Positions 1 to 6,000 of a stretch of 64,000 nucleotides of DNA are shown piece after piece. Location of the stretch: positions 1-64,000 of the forward strand of contig JBEIJY010000004.1 in the NCBI GenBank assembly GCA_040380025.1. The letters run 5' to 3'. This stretch comes from Bdellovibrionales bacterium. GTDB lineage: Bacteria; Bdellovibrionota; UBA1018; CAIMNF01. A program made the position numbers. Positions within the stretch are counted from its first letter, which is position 1, and every line of letters starts with the position of its first letter.

Positions 1-3000
1 AGTGGCTCCCGATGAGGAAATCAGGTGGATCCCATGAAGGAAATCAACTGGACCCGTTTAGGAAATCAGGTGGATCCCATCACTGGAAATTAGGTGGATC
101 CGGTGGGAGGAAATTTTGCAGCTGAAATCATCTCCAAAGCGGACAATGGAGACCGGATGTCGTGGGATACCTGCTCCGAAAAATCCAGCAATTTTCGCTG
201 TATGGAGAGATTCTGTTCATAGCGGGCAAGATCCCTTGAGGCAGAGACTTTAACCATGAACGCCTCATCCACAATATCTCGCAATTCGACCGGGACTCCA
301 ACGGTCACATTTTGATTTTCAGTCATATGAGGCCCGAATGCATCTGTGGTGATTCGTCGAGCAAGATCGGTAGCAGTCGAAAACTCCCTAAGAAGAAAGA
401 AACTAATGAAATTGGCAAGTACCGATCCTAAGATACAGCCAACTCCCGCAATCCGGATGGCGTCGCGAGTCCCGTAATTCGAAAGACTCAAAAACAAAAC
501 CACCAGAAACAGAGCAATCAAGACTGCGCCCTTTGTCTTTGATGTCATGCTTCGGTAGTCGAGAATTTCAAGTTCGGGAATTCTTTTGTTGGATGTGAAA
601 GAAATTGCAATGACTCCGACTCCGATGAAATACAGCACCTCGTAAAAACCGAAAACAGGCGCATCATCCACAAGCTTCTCGACTCTGAGTGCCCAATCCG
701 AAATCACCAGAGTCACAATTCCAATTCCAAAGTTCGACCAAAAAATCGTCCGGGAAGCAATCAATGCAATCAGGCCGTGCGCCAAAAGGAGCAAAGACCC
801 CACCACACCAGTAATCTCCATTAAGACCACATAAAGATTCATTTCTCCTGAGGAAATTCTTAAAAAAGGAACCAAAAGCAATCGAAGAGCAAGAGGGATG
901 CAAAGGAGATAGACAAAATAATTCGATGCTTGCCTCATCCAGGTTCGAGGATGGGATGCCCCGAGAACAATTGAAACAGCCCCGGAAAAATACGCAAAAA
1001 CATACATCAAAGTAGTCAAGGATACAGAAAGGGGTGTTCGGGAGGACCAGCTCAATCCGTAATAGATCAACACATAAAAAAAATCGCCAATGCCAAGAAA
1101 AAGAAAGAATGCCAGAAGAGTCCGCGGGGCGAAACGGGAAGGGCCGCCCATAGAAGCCTTGAAAACAACAAACGCACAAAAAAACTCAAGAGCTACCTCA
1201 CAAGCTCCCATGATCAAACCCTGTCGGGACCCCATAAAGCGGTGCTCAACAAGGTAAACGATTGCTGCAATCACGAGAATTGCCGCGATCTTCAACGAAT
1301 AGCTTTTCAGGTCAGGGTTACGACTGCCCATGTTGTTGGTGAACATCCCCGGTAATTGCCAATCTTCAAGGTCCCAATTCCTTTAAACCCACCTGTTTCG
1401 AACAAAACTGCAGATGCTTTGTTTTGATGCGGTTCGATCATGTAATCCGACACAAAACGCTCCTCCTTAAAAACCCCGATTATGTGCTTTAGAAGAGCCA
1501 TACCCAATCCCCGACGCCTCAGCCCCTGATCGATCACAATCTGATAAATGTATTTCCATACCCCGTACTTAAACACGCTCGCATCGAAGTCAATCACAGT
1601 ACCCCCAGCACGGAGCAAGTCCTGAAATTCACTCATGGGAGAAACAACAATGTAGCCCGAAACAATACCATCCCCCCGCAATACCAAAAAAATTCTGCTA
1701 CCTGAATGAATCAACCTAACCCACTCCGACCGATCCCAGACGGTAACCACAAAGCCCTGAACCAAATCAGAGTCAGAAGAAACTCTGGCATTTTTTTGAA
1801 TCTCGATCGCACGATCAAGCATGAGATCAACTTGATCCGAACTGAAGTCGGCAGAAGTGATCTCAGAAATCACATAAGAAATATCTTCTTTGCTCACCCG
1901 AGCTCCGTGTACTTTTTCGAGTTCCCTTTCGAGAGCCCGACCGGGTATTTCTCTGCGTTCTTTTGAATCTTTACCGCGAGGGCCGCTCCAAGGTCGATTT
2001 CGCAATGGTCGGCAATCCGAAGCAGGTACCCGAACACATCTGCAAGCTCCTCTGCGATTCGGGATTTACATACCTCATCCTGATGCGCGGAATTCGACTG
2101 TTCCTCGGTCTTCCACTGAAAAATCTCTGCAAGTTCAGCGGCCTCGACCATCAAAGCGGTCGAGAGATTCTTAACCGAATGAAATTGTCCCCAATCGCGT
2201 TCGGCTGCGAATTGCTTCAGCTCACTCAATAAAACGTCCGCATCAATGCACTTCATGGCTTACCAGCGCCTCCTTGAAATACCGGGCCGTTTCCTCGTCC
2301 GTGCAATAAATCGCACAGCCCTTCGTCCCGCGGGTCAGAAGCGTCCGGTATGTATTTTTAATCACCGCATCCGCATCGGCAAGGGCCTTTTCTCGATTCC
2401 ACTTCAGGAGCCCCTTGAACCCCTTGATGGATTGGTCCCCTTTTGCACGCTTGGTTCCGTCCGTGATCACCACACCATCGCGGACGATCAAATCAGGACC
2501 GATGATGACGCCAACATAATCCATCTCAAGCCCCTGGCAGGTATGAATGCACCCGATCTGTTCGATCGATCCGGGCTGGATCAGCCAAGCGCTTCCATCC
2601 GAGGCGAGATTCCATTTTTTCTTGAAATCGCCGATCTCGATGTCAAACGCTCGGGCGTTCTTTTTGCTCTTCCACTCCCAGCAGTACCCGGCAACAACGC
2701 GGGACTTTCCACCTACGGAATTTTTTCCCTTGATGAACTCGAACATCCCATCGGGGGTGTCGAACACCCTGAAGTCATATTGCGCCGAATTCAGAGTCTC
2801 GTTCGCGGTCTCTCGGATTTGCAACCGATCATCGAGCCATGCGAGATAGGCATCGGAACCGTTGCACCGATACTGCGATTCGAGTTCCATGACACTCACC
2901 CGAGCACCCAGTTTTTTCGCCCATCGGGTGATCTCGGCTTTCGAGCCGATGTCTTTGAATGTGACGCGCTGATGGTCATCCAAGAAAAACACCGTGAACA

Positions 3001-6000
3001 GGGCGCTCTGAATGATCTCTTTGACCTGATTCTCGCCCAGGTTCGAGAACAATCCGGATTTTTCATTGAGCCGGTGGGCTTCATCGATGACCAAGGTGTC
3101 GAAGGTGTTCTTCTCGGTCTGATGAAATCCCCCCGAACCCACGAACAGGTTCGAGATGTGGGAGCGTTTAAAGGAACCCGTGAGCATGGCTTCGTACACG
3201 GCTCTCGGAGCTGCATTTTTCGTGATGTATTGGCTGGTCATGGACCTCTTCGTGAACTCAACGAGGAGATTCACGGCGACGACGCTTTTTCCGGATCCTG
3301 GCCCCCCTTGCACGATCAGAACCTGTTTTGAGGTCGCCGAGCTTTTTTTGGCAAGATCAAGCGCGGTCTCGAAGACGATCTTCTGCTCGTCGACCATGAA
3401 GAACTCCTCATTGCCCTTCAGCATCGAAGCCAGGCTCTCGGCCAGGTTTTTCGAGGGTCGGATTTTTCCCTGATCGATGGCGTACAAAAGATTGCGCCGA
3501 TCGCCGTGGCGCACATGTTTTTTGATGAAGTCCCTGAGCTTTGCGGCCTCATCTCGCAGAAAGACAGGGGTATTCTGAAGATGATGCTCGTAGAAAGGGT
3601 CCCGTACGACAGAGCCATCCTTGCAATTATGAAGGTAGGCGCAGGGGTAAAGCGAGATGTCGTGATCCTCGACCGCGGAATTGAAGTTCTTGAGCAGCAT
3701 GGCGTAGCTCCATGCCTGATACGAAGGATGAGGCGTCTCGCGCAAGCCGCCACCAAGCTGAGTCACGACCACGCCGTCTTTGTCGCTCGGACGGATGTCG
3801 GTCCATTGCTTGAGTTCGACGATCACGAGCGAGTTCTTTTGGGTCTCGTCAAGTCCCGAGACGATAAAGTCAATTCGTTTTGCCGTGTTCGGCACCTTGT
3901 ATTCGATTCCCACCTGGGCATCGGCTGGGATTTCCGGATCCTCGAGAATATTGCTCATGTACTGCAATGAGTTCCGCCAAGAGGAAAGCTCGGATTGCCC
4001 TGTCCGCCTCCCGATTTTCTTAAGAATGGCGCCCGAGACCAGATCGTCGATCCGGTTCTCGAAGACATCCTGCCGAAATTGCACCTTATTTGCCGAGTAA
4101 ATGATCATGGCTGTGTCGGCAGGGTATCACCGGTGCCCTGGAGCCGGAAGCAGGAAGATGCGGGCTTTTGGTGTCAACCGAGGTCACGGAAGGGGCGAAT
4201 GATACCCCCGAACCCTTGGCATTTCGGCCAAAATAACATACAATTTGTGTCGTATCCCGAGCGAAGAATCCCTCTTCCAGCAACCGAGAGGCGCACGCCC
4301 TCCGCGGTGCTTGATTGATACGGCCACAAGGAGGCAAAACCATGAAATCAACCCCATCTGCAAACTCCAAAGCGACCGCCAAAGTCAAAACCCGAAGAAA
4401 GCCCGCGCCCAAAAAGCGAAAGCCCGAGGCGGATCTCTCGAACGGACCGTTTCAGGGGCTCTCGCCCGAGAGCGCGAGCCTCCTTCAGCCGCTTGTGCTC
4501 GCGCTGGAGTCCGAGCTTTCCAAACGCGGACTGATTGCCGCAGAGGTGCGCCACTCGACTCCTGCGGGCATCTCGTATCGGTACATTGTGGAACGATCGC
4601 TTGGCGTGGTGGTCGACCTCTACAAACCGAACTCGAGCCCGCACCTGATGTTCTCGATCGAGGCCGACATCGGCCGCGCCCTGAAGGATCCCTCGCGCAT
4701 GTTTTTGCTCGAGTCGCTTTTGGAGCTGAATCTCGGCTGTTCGACGCAGTTCCGGATCGGGCTCGATCACCAAAACCTCATTCGCGTGGTGTTCAGTGCT
4801 CGCGTTTTTGATCAGCTCTCGATCTCGGGCCTGGGTGAGCTCATGGACCGGATGATGTCCTACGCGTGTTACGCAAAAGACCGCATCGGCGATCAGCGCG
4901 CGTTTGTGCCGATTGATTTTGAAGCTCCCGCCCAAATGAAACCCCAGGAGAGCGAGAAGGAATCGCCCGGCCCGAATGGCTGGGTGCATTAAGAGGGTAT
5001 GCCCATGCCCCAAGAAACCCCAAGCAGAACGGACCGCGAACTCGGAATGCTCCTCGGGCTTCATGCCGGGGACTCGCTCGGGGCGACGCTGGAGTTTCAA
5101 GCGCCGGTGTCGGAATCGAAGTGGCTTCGGGAGATCGTCGGTGGAGGCCCTCTAAGGTGGAATCCCGGAGATGCGACCGACGACACCGACCTCATGATTT
5201 GTGTGTTGTCGGCGATTCAAAAAAACCGGACGGAATTCTCGTTTGAAACTCTGATCGACGGCTTTTTGAGCTGGTATGACTCAGACCCCGTCGATATCGG
5301 AAACACCACAGAACGAGGCCTTGAGCGCCTGATCGAGGGCCACCCGCCCGAGAAATGCGGATCCTCGGGCGAGTATGACCAGGGGAACGGATCGCTCATG
5401 CGATGTGCCCCGCTTGCACTTTTGAACGTCGGCAACGAGGAGCTTGAGCGGATTATCGCAAAACAAGCGCGCATCACCCATGCCCATCGGGCATGCATCC
5501 GGGCCGATGTCACGTTGGTGTATGCTCTGCGAGATTTACTTTCGGGCCTCGAGAAGCAGGTGGTTTTTGAGAACGCGATCGCGCGCTCGCCCGAGCTGAG
5601 CGAGGCAATCGAGACCCCGTGGGAAGAGTTCGAGACTTCGGGATACGTTCGCCACACCCTGATCGCGGGATTCTGGGCATTGATGAACTGCGACTCTTTT
5701 GAGGAGTCGGTGGTGAAAATCGTGAACCGGGGCCGGGATGCCGACACCTGTGGCGCGGTCGCCGGAGCCCTTTGTGGAGCGTATTACGGGGTGCGGGGGA
5801 TTCCGGAATCATGGCTTGGCACCCTGAAGCGCGCGGGGGAGATTCGGGGGATTTATGAGAGAGGTTGATGACCCGTGGAGAGAGACGATGGAACAAAAAG
5901 AGGATGGAATCATTTTGAGCTTCGCGCAGAGTTTCGAGGATTATTTATTTCAAACTAATAAGCCTGGAAGCAACAAGGCTGCGTCCTACCTTCGGGCGAT

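Follow-up and report, generated by a model that had tools for sequence, protein, structure and literature searches.

A candidate mobile defence cassette pairing a DUF2075 nuclease-helicase with a DCTPP1-like MazG protein in a Bdellovibrionales bacterium

At the start of the window, by which we mean the whole 64,000-nucleotide stretch of Bdellovibrionales DNA analysed here, the genome-wide survey's note described four overlapping genes and read two of them, a nuclease-helicase and a MazG-like pyrophosphatase, as a two-component anti-phage system. This raises the question of which genes form the unit and whether that unit serves in defence. The four genes proved real when the open reading frames and their junctions were read. 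All lie on the minus strand, at 2243–4108 (621 aa), 1894–2256 (120 aa), 1307–2005 (a GNAT acetyltransferase, with a likely GTG start at 1897) and 90–1346 (418 aa). The MazG start lies inside the end of the helicase gene, with an overlap of 14 nt; the MazG and GNAT genes meet in a GTGA overlap, a sign of translational coupling, and the GNAT and 418-aa genes overlap by 25–40 nt. Since the four reading frames overlap, they are probably co-transcribed. The presumed promoter region is the intergenic sequence 5' of the helicase gene (4109–4314, not assigned to a strand), common to that gene and a divergent gene at 4315–4992; its only promoter-like match lies on the plus strand (4216–4244), and such matches are no commoner there than in shuffled sequence.

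The 621-residue protein, the presumed effector, comprises a head domain and a helicase core. The core, residues 261–604 (2297–3328, minus strand), matches the SLFN-g3_helicase family PF09848 at 3.4e-100 over profile positions 1–354 of 354, and belongs to the SF1B, or Schlafen-group-3 (DUF2075), helicases. The Walker A motif GGPGSGKS is found at residues 268–275 and a DEAH motif at 342–345, with G268–K274, D342, E343 and H345 invariant in the aligned homologues. The AF2 model of the whole protein (pLDDT 86, pTM 0.85) has SLFN11 as its top Foldseek match (1.7e-10), followed by RecD2, RecD, Dna2, Upf1 and Dda. The head, residues 1–255 (3344–4108, minus strand), is a restriction-endonuclease-like, PD-(D/E)xK domain, whose invariant D80 and E98-L-K100 had been noted in the earlier survey; both held in alignments of 39 and of 41 homologues, together with E69, P73 and R78. 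In its model (pLDDT 90.4), D80 sits on strand 78–86 and E98-x-K100 on strand 92–100. VIA-align related the head to VC1899 (Z 7.9), Can2 (7.1), Cdn1 (7.0), Card1 (6.1), NucS (5.7) and many type II enzymes, scores of 5–8 being in the range that VIA-align calls common; Foldseek returned no match for the head at E ≤ 0.001, the best being SduA at 0.024. Homologues of the nuclease-helicase number more than 8000 among the matches listed.

This architecture, a nuclease head followed by a DUF2075 helicase, is supported as that of Nhi, with nuclease activity predicted from the conserved residues. According to Bari et al. (bioRxiv 10.1101/776245), Nhi of S. epidermidis (SERP2475) acts against phages as one nuclease-helicase protein; like lactococcal AbiO, it has an N-terminal PD-(D/E)xK nuclease and then an SF1B helicase overlapping DUF2075. 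The weak PADLOC matches recorded by the survey were recovered (PDC-S41 6.1e-19 at residues 16–300, AbiO 5e-10, Nhi 2.1e-9). However, only the P-loop region matches the AbiO and Nhi models, at positions 179–331 of 470 for Nhi, and the nuclease heads do not align with that of the window protein. The conserved MazG partner is a further difference from Nhi, the main text of the Nhi preprint containing no word that starts with 'pyrophosph'. Nhi-like, described in a preprint as a one-gene anti-phage system with a nuclease predicted at the N terminus and DUF2075 (PF09848) (Millman et al. 2022, bioRxiv 10.1101/2022.05.11.491447), has by that description the same domain organisation as the window protein, but lacks the second gene, MazG, that is linked here. 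SLFN11 shares the helicase family (PF09848), and the pre-helicase regions of SLFN11 and SLFN12 align weakly to the window head domain (Z 4.9 and 4.7); unlike the mammalian group III Schlafens, the window protein lacks the Schlafen tRNase domain and carries instead a nuclease head and a MazG partner.

The 120-aa protein (1894–2256, minus strand) is an all-alpha NTP pyrophosphohydrolase of the MazG-like family PF12643 (51.6 bits, where the cut-off is 27; E 1.1e-13), and its gene is the only PF12643 gene of the genome. Its best sequence match in the PDB is dCTP pyrophosphatase 1 (DCTPP1, also RS21-C6; 1.2e-24), with 47 identities in 105 aligned columns, or 44.8%, in agreement with the roughly 45% given previously. 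The ExxE...ExxD metal motif is kept, as are W22, H26, W48 and Y77 at aromatic-pocket positions aligned to DCTPP1; R20, W22, H26, E38, E41, E70, D73, K96 and Y104 do not vary across 40 sequences. Mammalian DCTPP1 is a housekeeping sanitiser of the nucleotide pool that prefers 5-modified dCTP, and substrates vary across the all-alpha NTP-pyrophosphatase superfamily. The 45% identity and the conserved pocket residues suggest that MazG might hydrolyse the 5-modified dCTP of phages.

Do the two genes belong together? A MazG relative adjoins the helicase in 45 of 80 related loci, the same count as before, and these loci span at least 13 named phyla, somewhat beyond the ten or so first estimated. Where flanks were adequate, MazG was present in 41 of 63 loci (26 of 33 short forms, 15 of 30 forms with a UmuD/LexA-like S24 tail) and absent near the helicase in 22; in one helicase-bearing Xanthomonas genome no MazG-like gene was found anywhere. 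Samples of genomes agree with the claim that the two travel together: among 301 Bdellovibrionota genomes, 12 of the 14 that bear DUF2075 have the adjacent pair, as do 13 of 201 Bacteroidota genomes, namely all six with the window-type helicase and all seven with a type of about 730 aa, of which one protein checked consists of GIY-YIG, DUF2075 and S24 domains. MazG adjoins none of the third Bacteroidota DUF2075 subfamily (about 650–705 aa; 0 of 16 genomes). The link holds with PD-(D/E)xK or GIY-YIG heads, with or without the S24 tail, and in three arrangements, with MazG upstream, downstream or divergent. The statement that only two genomes have the order seen here does not hold in these samples, in which the helicase precedes MazG at 8 of the 45 loci and in six of the seven window-type pairs from Bdellovibrionota. 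Divergence of the helicase and of MazG correlates only weakly (Spearman 0.21). Neighbourhoods vary, and MazG is the sole large recurrent cluster among helicase neighbours. We take the helicase and MazG as a conserved, functionally linked pair, a conclusion that these data support, with only these two genes in the unit.

The GNAT and membrane-protein genes are placed outside the unit because relatives of each occur in none of the 80 related loci; they are local passengers. The GNAT (1307–1897 from its likely start, minus strand) matches Acetyltransf_1 (PF00583) at 1.9e-5, and with this the survey's three domain calls are reproduced. The 418-aa product (90–1346, minus strand) had been called an orphan, which is right in that no Pfam, NCBIfam or PADLOC family matches it; it is nevertheless a multi-pass membrane protein whose end, by its letters, resembles a histidine-kinase H-box (SHDIRSPLSALE). 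That all four genes make up one four-component system is accordingly very improbable. Their overlapping frames and probable co-transcription would suit it, as would the GNAT gene that a Bacillus thuringiensis plasmid carries 630 nt downstream of its distant homologue, but the two GNATs match locally over 29 residues only, a 23-nt tandem repeat at the contig start truncates the membrane-protein frame, and the GC content of both genes (about 0.46; GNAT 0.456) differs from that of the pair (0.51–0.53, itself below the window mean of 0.566).

The pair bears signs of mobility: none of ten other genomes sampled from the same genus has either the helicase or MazG, its GC content is below the window mean, and its neighbourhoods vary. 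DUF2075 helicases are patchily spread (14 of 301 Bdellovibrionota and 30 of 201 Bacteroidota genomes), and helicases of unrelated phyla are 50–63% identical. Plasmids of archaea and of bacteria carry the pair too, as does one record labelled as phage. In many cases the surroundings are a defence island. At least one PADLOC match (E ≤ 1e-12) lies within two genes in 20 of 61 loci, a raw count given with no background rate, and the neighbours include DpnI, type IV enzymes, PD-Lambda-1, Cas9/Cas1, Tmn, PD-T7-5 and SoFic; the other 41 loci have no recognised defence gene at that distance. In the window, two type-IV-like HNH endonucleases, an SBD-HNH enzyme (8h0l, 8e-13) and a second, HNH_2 enzyme, are encoded 1.7–3.9 kb upstream of the cassette.

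We therefore lean, with somewhat more confidence than doubt, towards reading 1894–4108 as a horizontally acquired, mobile two-gene cassette of the Nhi/Nhi-like kind, most likely directed against phages or other mobile DNA and equipped with an accessory pyrophosphatase, because the linkage is replicated and convergent, the motifs are intact, and signs of mobility, defence neighbours and the Nhi precedent point the same way. The 621-aa protein would load on foreign or replicating DNA through its SF1B motor, and its head would then cut that DNA. MazG, with the fold and catalytic residues of a DCTPP1-type pyrophosphohydrolase, would act on the nucleotide pool, most plausibly on non-canonical, 5-modified or damaged, dCTP-like nucleotides, possibly denying modified-cytosine phages their building blocks or keeping modified nucleotides out of the DNA that the nuclease-helicase surveys. 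In relatives, RecA filaments may switch the helicase on, as its self-cleaving S24 tail suggests; such a tail is missing from the window protein. The GNAT and membrane-protein genes would be co-transcribed with the pair without taking part.

Of the two-component anti-phage reading, what stands is the linked pair, the Nhi-type architecture and the frequent defence setting; what does not is MazG as a defence-specific partner. Of 111 Bdellovibrionota genomes that carry MazG, 99 have no helicase adjoining it, and the solitary genes include some that are 55–59% identical to the window MazG; no helicase was adjacent at any of 20 solitary loci examined. The surroundings of 16 scanned were mostly housekeeping, with an RlmF-type methyltransferase gene beside MazG in four. 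Solitary and linked genes interleave on a tree of few columns and many open forks, and the 40-sequence alignment holds no feature that sets the linked ones apart. MazG is thus not supported as a defence-specific lineage, and no paper found in our literature search names it as a host defence component.

The housekeeping look of solitary MazG genes would fit a genome-maintenance module, in which damaged or mis-modified host DNA is the substrate of the nuclease-helicase and MazG cleans oxidised or alkylated dCTP for repair synthesis, the helicase of relatives being switched on by RecA-stimulated S24 self-cleavage in the manner of UmuD and LexA. A C-terminal S24 domain is present in about 36 of 80 homologues, one such tail aligning to UmuD with the Cys-Gly site, Ser (GHSM) and Lys (IKK) in place, and repair genes occur as neighbours: uvrC (G406), a MutY-like gene (L071), lexA two genes away (L077) and mutT (on a Priestia plasmid). 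We nonetheless hold this to be unlikely, given the tail-less window protein, the patchy spread, the plasmid locations, the similarity of helicases across phyla and the frequency of restriction and other defence genes nearby. Less probable still is that MazG is an antitoxin-like regulator or safety device and no second weapon, removing an activating or inhibiting nucleotide or holding the enzyme off host DNA until phage-induced pool shifts release the nuclease. Tight translational coupling, and a link that goes with the helicase core irrespective of the type of nuclease head, would agree with this, as would the higher frequency of MazG beside tail-less than S24-tailed helicases, as though MazG and the tail partly stood in for each other as controls, in loci that are interrelated. 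Yet seven of the 33 short forms with adequate flanks have neither MazG nor tail, the linked MazG looks like the solitary ones, and no domain for sensing nucleotides was identified in the helicase protein.

Among known defences, those in the preprint by Tal et al. (dCTP deaminase, dGTPase) are described as depleting canonical dNTPs and standing alone; they share with the favoured reading the idea of immunity at the nucleotide pool, but the enzymes are unrelated. The PADLOC defence candidate PDC-S41, a DUF2075 family and the window protein's top PADLOC match, is a paralogous subfamily of about 660 aa that the window protein matches only over positions 13–276 of 657. The Bacteroidota subfamily of about 650–705 aa is assigned to it from length and score pattern only. 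At loci L016 and L050, a PDC-S41 protein, matched by the model at 1.5e-275 and 7e-288, respectively, is encoded in tandem after a window-type helicase.

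Four minus-strand ORFs occupy positions 90-4108 at the start of the contig, and they overlap as the genome-wide survey's note had described. They encode a 621-residue nuclease-helicase (2243-4108), a 120-residue MazG protein (1894-2256), a GNAT acetyltransferase (1307-2005 at its longest start) and a 418-residue membrane protein (90-1346). Read across the junctions, the end of the helicase gene shares 14 nt with the start of the MazG gene, whose stop forms a GTGA overlap with an in-frame GTG of the GNAT gene, and the GNAT stop falls 25-40 nt within the 418-residue ORF. On rerun, the survey's Pfam, PADLOC and PDB calls gave near-identical values (PF09848, E = 3.4e-100; PF12643, 1.1e-13; DCTPP1, 1.2e-24). 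The genome, 2.35 Mb in 53 contigs and 98% complete, holds a single gene each of the PF09848 and PF12643 families. We lean towards reading the nuclease-helicase and MazG genes together as a candidate mobile defence cassette.

The DUF2075 profile PF09848 matches the large protein over its full length (336.2 bits, cut-off 24), with residues 261-604 corresponding to profile positions 1-354 of 354. The Walker A motif, GGPGSGKS (268-275), and a DEAH box (342-345) are invariant in the alignment of homologues. An AlphaFold model of the whole protein, computed with 39 homologues as input, reached a pLDDT of 86 and a pTM of 0.85; its best Foldseek match was human SLFN11 (1.7e-10), followed by the SF1B helicases RecD2, RecD, Dna2, Upf1 and Dda. 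A PDB sequence search with the protein returned no match at E ≤ 0.01. By profile and model, the protein is a full member of Schlafen group 3 (DUF2075), with a predicted SF1 fold and intact Walker A and B motifs, and would be expected to act as a helicase.

The N-terminal head, residues 1-255, was modelled separately with a pLDDT of 90.4. This model puts D80 in strand 78-86 and E98-L-K100 in the neighbouring strand 92-100; these residues are invariant in 41 sequences. The top VIA-align match of the head was VC1899 (Z 7.9, rmsd 3.0, 129 aligned residues; the tool calls Z scores of 5-8 common), with Can2, Cdn1, Card1, NucS, NucC and many type II enzymes among the others, and nearly all top rows were of the restriction-endonuclease fold. 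Foldseek with the head domain found no match at E ≤ 0.001. Given these moderate Z scores and the absence of Foldseek matches at that threshold, the nuclease assignment rests on motif and fold combined: the predicted head presents a PD-(D/E)xK catalytic motif on adjacent β-strands and is a putative nuclease. A profile search with this domain gathered 2854 cluster representatives, always with the domain at the N-terminus, and the complete proteins among them measured about 620-650 or 790-815 residues. The helicase family is large, and it spans bacteria and archaea.

In domain order, nuclease head (1-255) followed by helicase (261-604), the window protein is the same as Nhi (SERP2475; Bari et al., bioRxiv 10.1101/776245) and AbiO. 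The corresponding models match it only in part (Nhi, 2.1e-9; AbiO, 5e-10; residues 233-416 against profile positions 179-331 of 470). The Nhi-like protein of Millman et al. (2022; bioRxiv 10.1101/2022.05.11.491447), compared by domain organisation alone, has the same organisation. The PADLOC candidate PDC-S41 matches the window protein with no more than positions 13-276 of its 657 (6.1e-19), whereas true members reach 1.5e-275 and 7e-288. The window protein therefore fits neither the Nhi nor the PDC-S41 model in full, and its architecture is that of Nhi and, at the level of domain organisation, of the Nhi-like protein, so that its kind is known. Two loci, L016 (3705-5705) and L050 (7878-9851), carry a PDC-S41-type DUF2075 paralogue in tandem directly after a window-type helicase. 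Searches for DUF2075 and MazG together found no paper, and none of the papers found, including the main text of a 2026 domain-centric screen, names a MazG partner of such a helicase. Combining MazG-like, helicase, defence and phage returned phage-genome papers only, the Schlafen anti-phage literature found concerns the Schlafen RNase domain only, and that on MazG, anti-phage activity and dCTP names no host MazG defence. The word pyrophosphatase does not occur in the main text of Millman et al.

The small protein scores 51.6 bits against PF12643 (cut-off 27), and its alignment with mammalian dCTP pyrophosphatase 1 (DCTPP1; 47 of 105 identities) runs from one end to the other. Its ExxE...ExxD metal-binding residues E38, E41, E70 and D73 are invariant in 40 aligned relatives, all of which likewise keep R20, W22, H26, K96 and Y104. 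The pocket residues align to those of DCTPP1 and may play the same roles, with a possible preference for dCTP and 5-modified dCTP. On these alignments, MazG very likely has NTP pyrophosphohydrolase activity.

The survey's note had proposed that the two genes travel together, and the pairing proved firmer than stated there. Among 80 helicase loci drawn from species-representative genomes, a MazG relative adjoins the helicase on the same strand in 45, lying upstream of it in 37 and downstream in 8; these paired loci are spread over at least 13 named phyla. When only complete genes flanked on either side by 450 nt or more were counted, 41 of 63 loci were paired. An even sample of 301 genomes of Bdellovibrionota, taken as the window's phylum since the Bacteriovoracaceae MAG of locus L002 is reported to share its order, held a DUF2075 gene in 14, with a DCTPP1-like MazG gene within about 1 kb in 12 of these. 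In Bacteroidota (201 genomes, 30 with DUF2075), MazG is adjacent to all six window-type genes and to all seven of a type of about 730 residues, one of which was checked and comprises GIY-YIG, DUF2075 and Peptidase_S24 domains, and to none of 16 genes of a type of about 650-705 residues. By length and score pattern we assigned this last type to PDC-S41, an identity confirmed for the L016 and L050 paralogues only. In Bdellovibrionota a MazG gene, mostly in divergent orientation, likewise accompanies shorter GIY-YIG forms. From these counts, the MazG link tracks particular DUF2075 lineages regardless of head, tail or gene order, a pattern hard to explain without a functional tie between the two proteins. 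Prediction of a 1:1 complex of helicase and MazG scored 0.00 in two control-free runs, which speaks neither for nor against a complex.

The pair is also mobile. Plasmids of Bacillota and Bacteroidota carry it, as do a haloarchaeal plasmid and one record labelled as a Microcystis phage. The last (L105; PP438423.1, Microcystis phage Mwe-JY31) is a 22-kb phage deposit whose 18 genes are all annotated as hypothetical, with the order TPR protein, MazG, window-type helicase (53.8% identical). On the Bacillus thuringiensis plasmid pBMB400 (L119), a full-length homologue of 26% identity follows genes for an NTP pyrophosphohydrolase and an HNH protein; on a Priestia plasmid (L120), one of 38.9% identity follows MrcB_N-HNH and NTP pyrophosphohydrolase genes and adjoins mutT and a type I R-M system. 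Both distant homologues keep the D...ExK motif. Neither the helicase nor MazG was found in 10 other sampled genomes of the same genus, which fits recent acquisition. Scans for tRNA genes and Rfam families in the first 20-24 kb of the window found none, so no tRNA integration site can be named, and same-genus DNA, 64-84% identical in short patches, is too diverged to define island borders. A stretch of about 130 nt at 4239-4372, lying upstream of a 225-residue orphan gene and extending into its start, has counterparts of 78-84% identity in two same-genus genomes and on contig C31 of the window's own genome; it matches no tRNA or Rfam family, and elsewhere in the first 14.8 kb there are no comparable matches.

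Upstream of the pair lie, in order, the orphan gene, an ADP-ribosylglycohydrolase and two HNH_2 endonucleases. The ADP-ribosylglycohydrolase (4999-5868, plus strand; PF03747, 1.3e-62) does not reach the NCBIfam thresholds for DraG and Tri1 and overlaps the start of an HNH_2 gene (5855-6775, plus strand; PADLOC 'HNH', 6e-46). The other endonuclease (6980-7969, minus strand) matches the solved sulfur-binding domain SBDHga1 at its N-terminus (8e-13) and has an HNH domain like that of TagI, features of a probable phosphorothioate-dependent type IV enzyme. HNH_2 relatives also occur near DUF2075 genes in six other loci (L019, L035, L045, L056, L113 and L115). Defence genes are, in raw counts, frequent company more widely: a PADLOC match at E ≤ 1e-12 lies within two genes in 20 of 61 loci, three of them discountable as generic-domain matches. 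Pfam families among all 184 neighbours of at least 90 residues include DpnI, Mrr, NERD, T5orf172, Cas9/Cas1, ABC-3C, HipA, Zeta, TIR, MmeI and Z1, together with many housekeeping ones. PLD-helicase-DUF3427 proteins neighbour the helicase in four of the 80 loci (L035, L071, L075 and L080); Lutz et al. (2019; PMC6765204) had earlier noted a DUF2075-DUF3427 neighbourhood.

In the defence cassette that we favour, the Nhi-type nuclease-helicase would be the effector, acting on foreign or replicating DNA, and the DCTPP1-type pyrophosphatase would be an accessory acting on non-canonical dCTP-like nucleotides. Should the two genes prove to work as an immune module, the nucleotide-directed defences known so far would gain a pyrophosphatase that sanitises the pool, and nucleotide metabolism would be linked to a bacterial relative of human Schlafen helicases. 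A bolder version, which we regard as rather unlikely, has the cassette act against the source of DNA hypermodification. In it, the DCTPP1-like enzyme would be selective for 5-substituted dCTPs made by the phage and hydrolyse them, and the phage would either stall or build plain-cytosine DNA that the nuclease-helicase and host restriction enzymes could cut, while neighbouring type IV enzymes would catch DNA that is still modified. The recurrent modification-dependent nucleases (DUF3427 helicases, MrcB_N-HNH and Mrr, and in the window SBD-HNH and HNH_2) fit this theme.

The C-termini of many relatives bear on control, and with it on whether the module might serve the host's own DNA. About 36 of the 80 homologues measure about 800 residues and end in a Peptidase_S24 domain. 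In one of them (L055, 7111-7626), alignment of this tail with UmuD brings the Cys-Gly cleavage site, the serine of GxSM and the lysine into register, residues that would play the roles they have in UmuD. The alignment suggests that self-cleavage triggered by RecA filaments may act as a switch in the tailed relatives, and the tail offers a testable clue to the control of such nucleases. The family follows a clean modular grammar of nuclease head, DUF2075 core and an optional, putatively self-cleaving tail, plus MazG. MazG accompanies 15 of 30 tailed against 26 of 33 tail-less helicases, which, in a phylogenetically clustered set of loci, hints that MazG and the S24 tail are partly alternative accessories. 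The window's helicase has no such tail. In L033, a 598-residue type-IV-like protein upstream of the helicase ends in a similar S24 domain. That the pair is a damage-response or genome-maintenance module, with the tail on one side of the question and the mobility and defence company on the other, strikes us as rather improbable.

MazG also leads a life apart from the helicase. Its type occurs in 111 of the 301 Bdellovibrionota genomes, beside the helicase in only 12. Twenty helicase-less MazG loci were fetched; the neighbours, scanned in 16, were mostly ordinary genes, with an RlmF-type methyltransferase adjoining in four. Several solitary MazG proteins share 55-59% identity with that of the window, more than most helicase-linked ones of other phyla do. 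A tree of 79 MazG proteins, built on few columns and with many forks lacking resolution, groups mainly by host taxon and intermixes solitary and linked genes within a supported Bdellovibrionota-rich clade. Between helicases and their partner MazG proteins, the correlation of pairwise divergences is only weak, with a Spearman coefficient of 0.21 that 1 of 2000 permutations reached. Bacteroidota differ, with 13 of 19 strong MazG matches helicase-linked. Conversely, 22 of the 63 helicase loci have no MazG nearby, and in one helicase-bearing Xanthomonas genome no MazG-like gene was found anywhere. These counts cut against a dedicated 'weapon' role for MazG; the simplest reading is an ordinary pool-sanitising enzyme repeatedly recruited beside helicases, or left behind after helicase loss. 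The repeated origin of the link, with lineage-typical MazG genes, is a further testable clue to the control of such nucleases. MazG might instead be a regulator or safety device of the helicase, which is, in our judgement, unlikely. A system of all four overlapping genes is highly improbable: none of the 80 related loci carries a relative of the GNAT or of the membrane protein, which places both outside the unit. Their GC content is 0.46, against 0.51-0.53 for the pair and a window mean of 0.566. The GNAT matches PF00583 at residues 98-202 (25.3 bits, cut-off 20.7).

Two candidates for a shared third gene were rejected. A conserved small, convergent ORF of 74-90 residues (31-51% identity) directly follows MazG in four helicase-then-MazG cassettes (L002, 3133-3405; L045, 7546-7782; L110, 5830-6054; L111, 2267-2491); the window has the GNAT there instead. 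A TPR protein of about 650-670 residues lies directly upstream of MazG in a few loci only (L053, 263-2221; L059, 3687-5678; L105, 3629-5647, the last with a TPR-S 'sensor' repeat match), and smaller TPR proteins cluster in nine loci. At the very start of the contig (8-104), at least four tandem copies of a unit of about 23 nt (GGAAATCAGGTGGATCCCAT-like) end the 418-residue ORF just past an H-box-like motif. Sequence like this repeat recurs near the ends of other contigs, both of this genome and of a same-genus one, and at 36176-36204 of the window.
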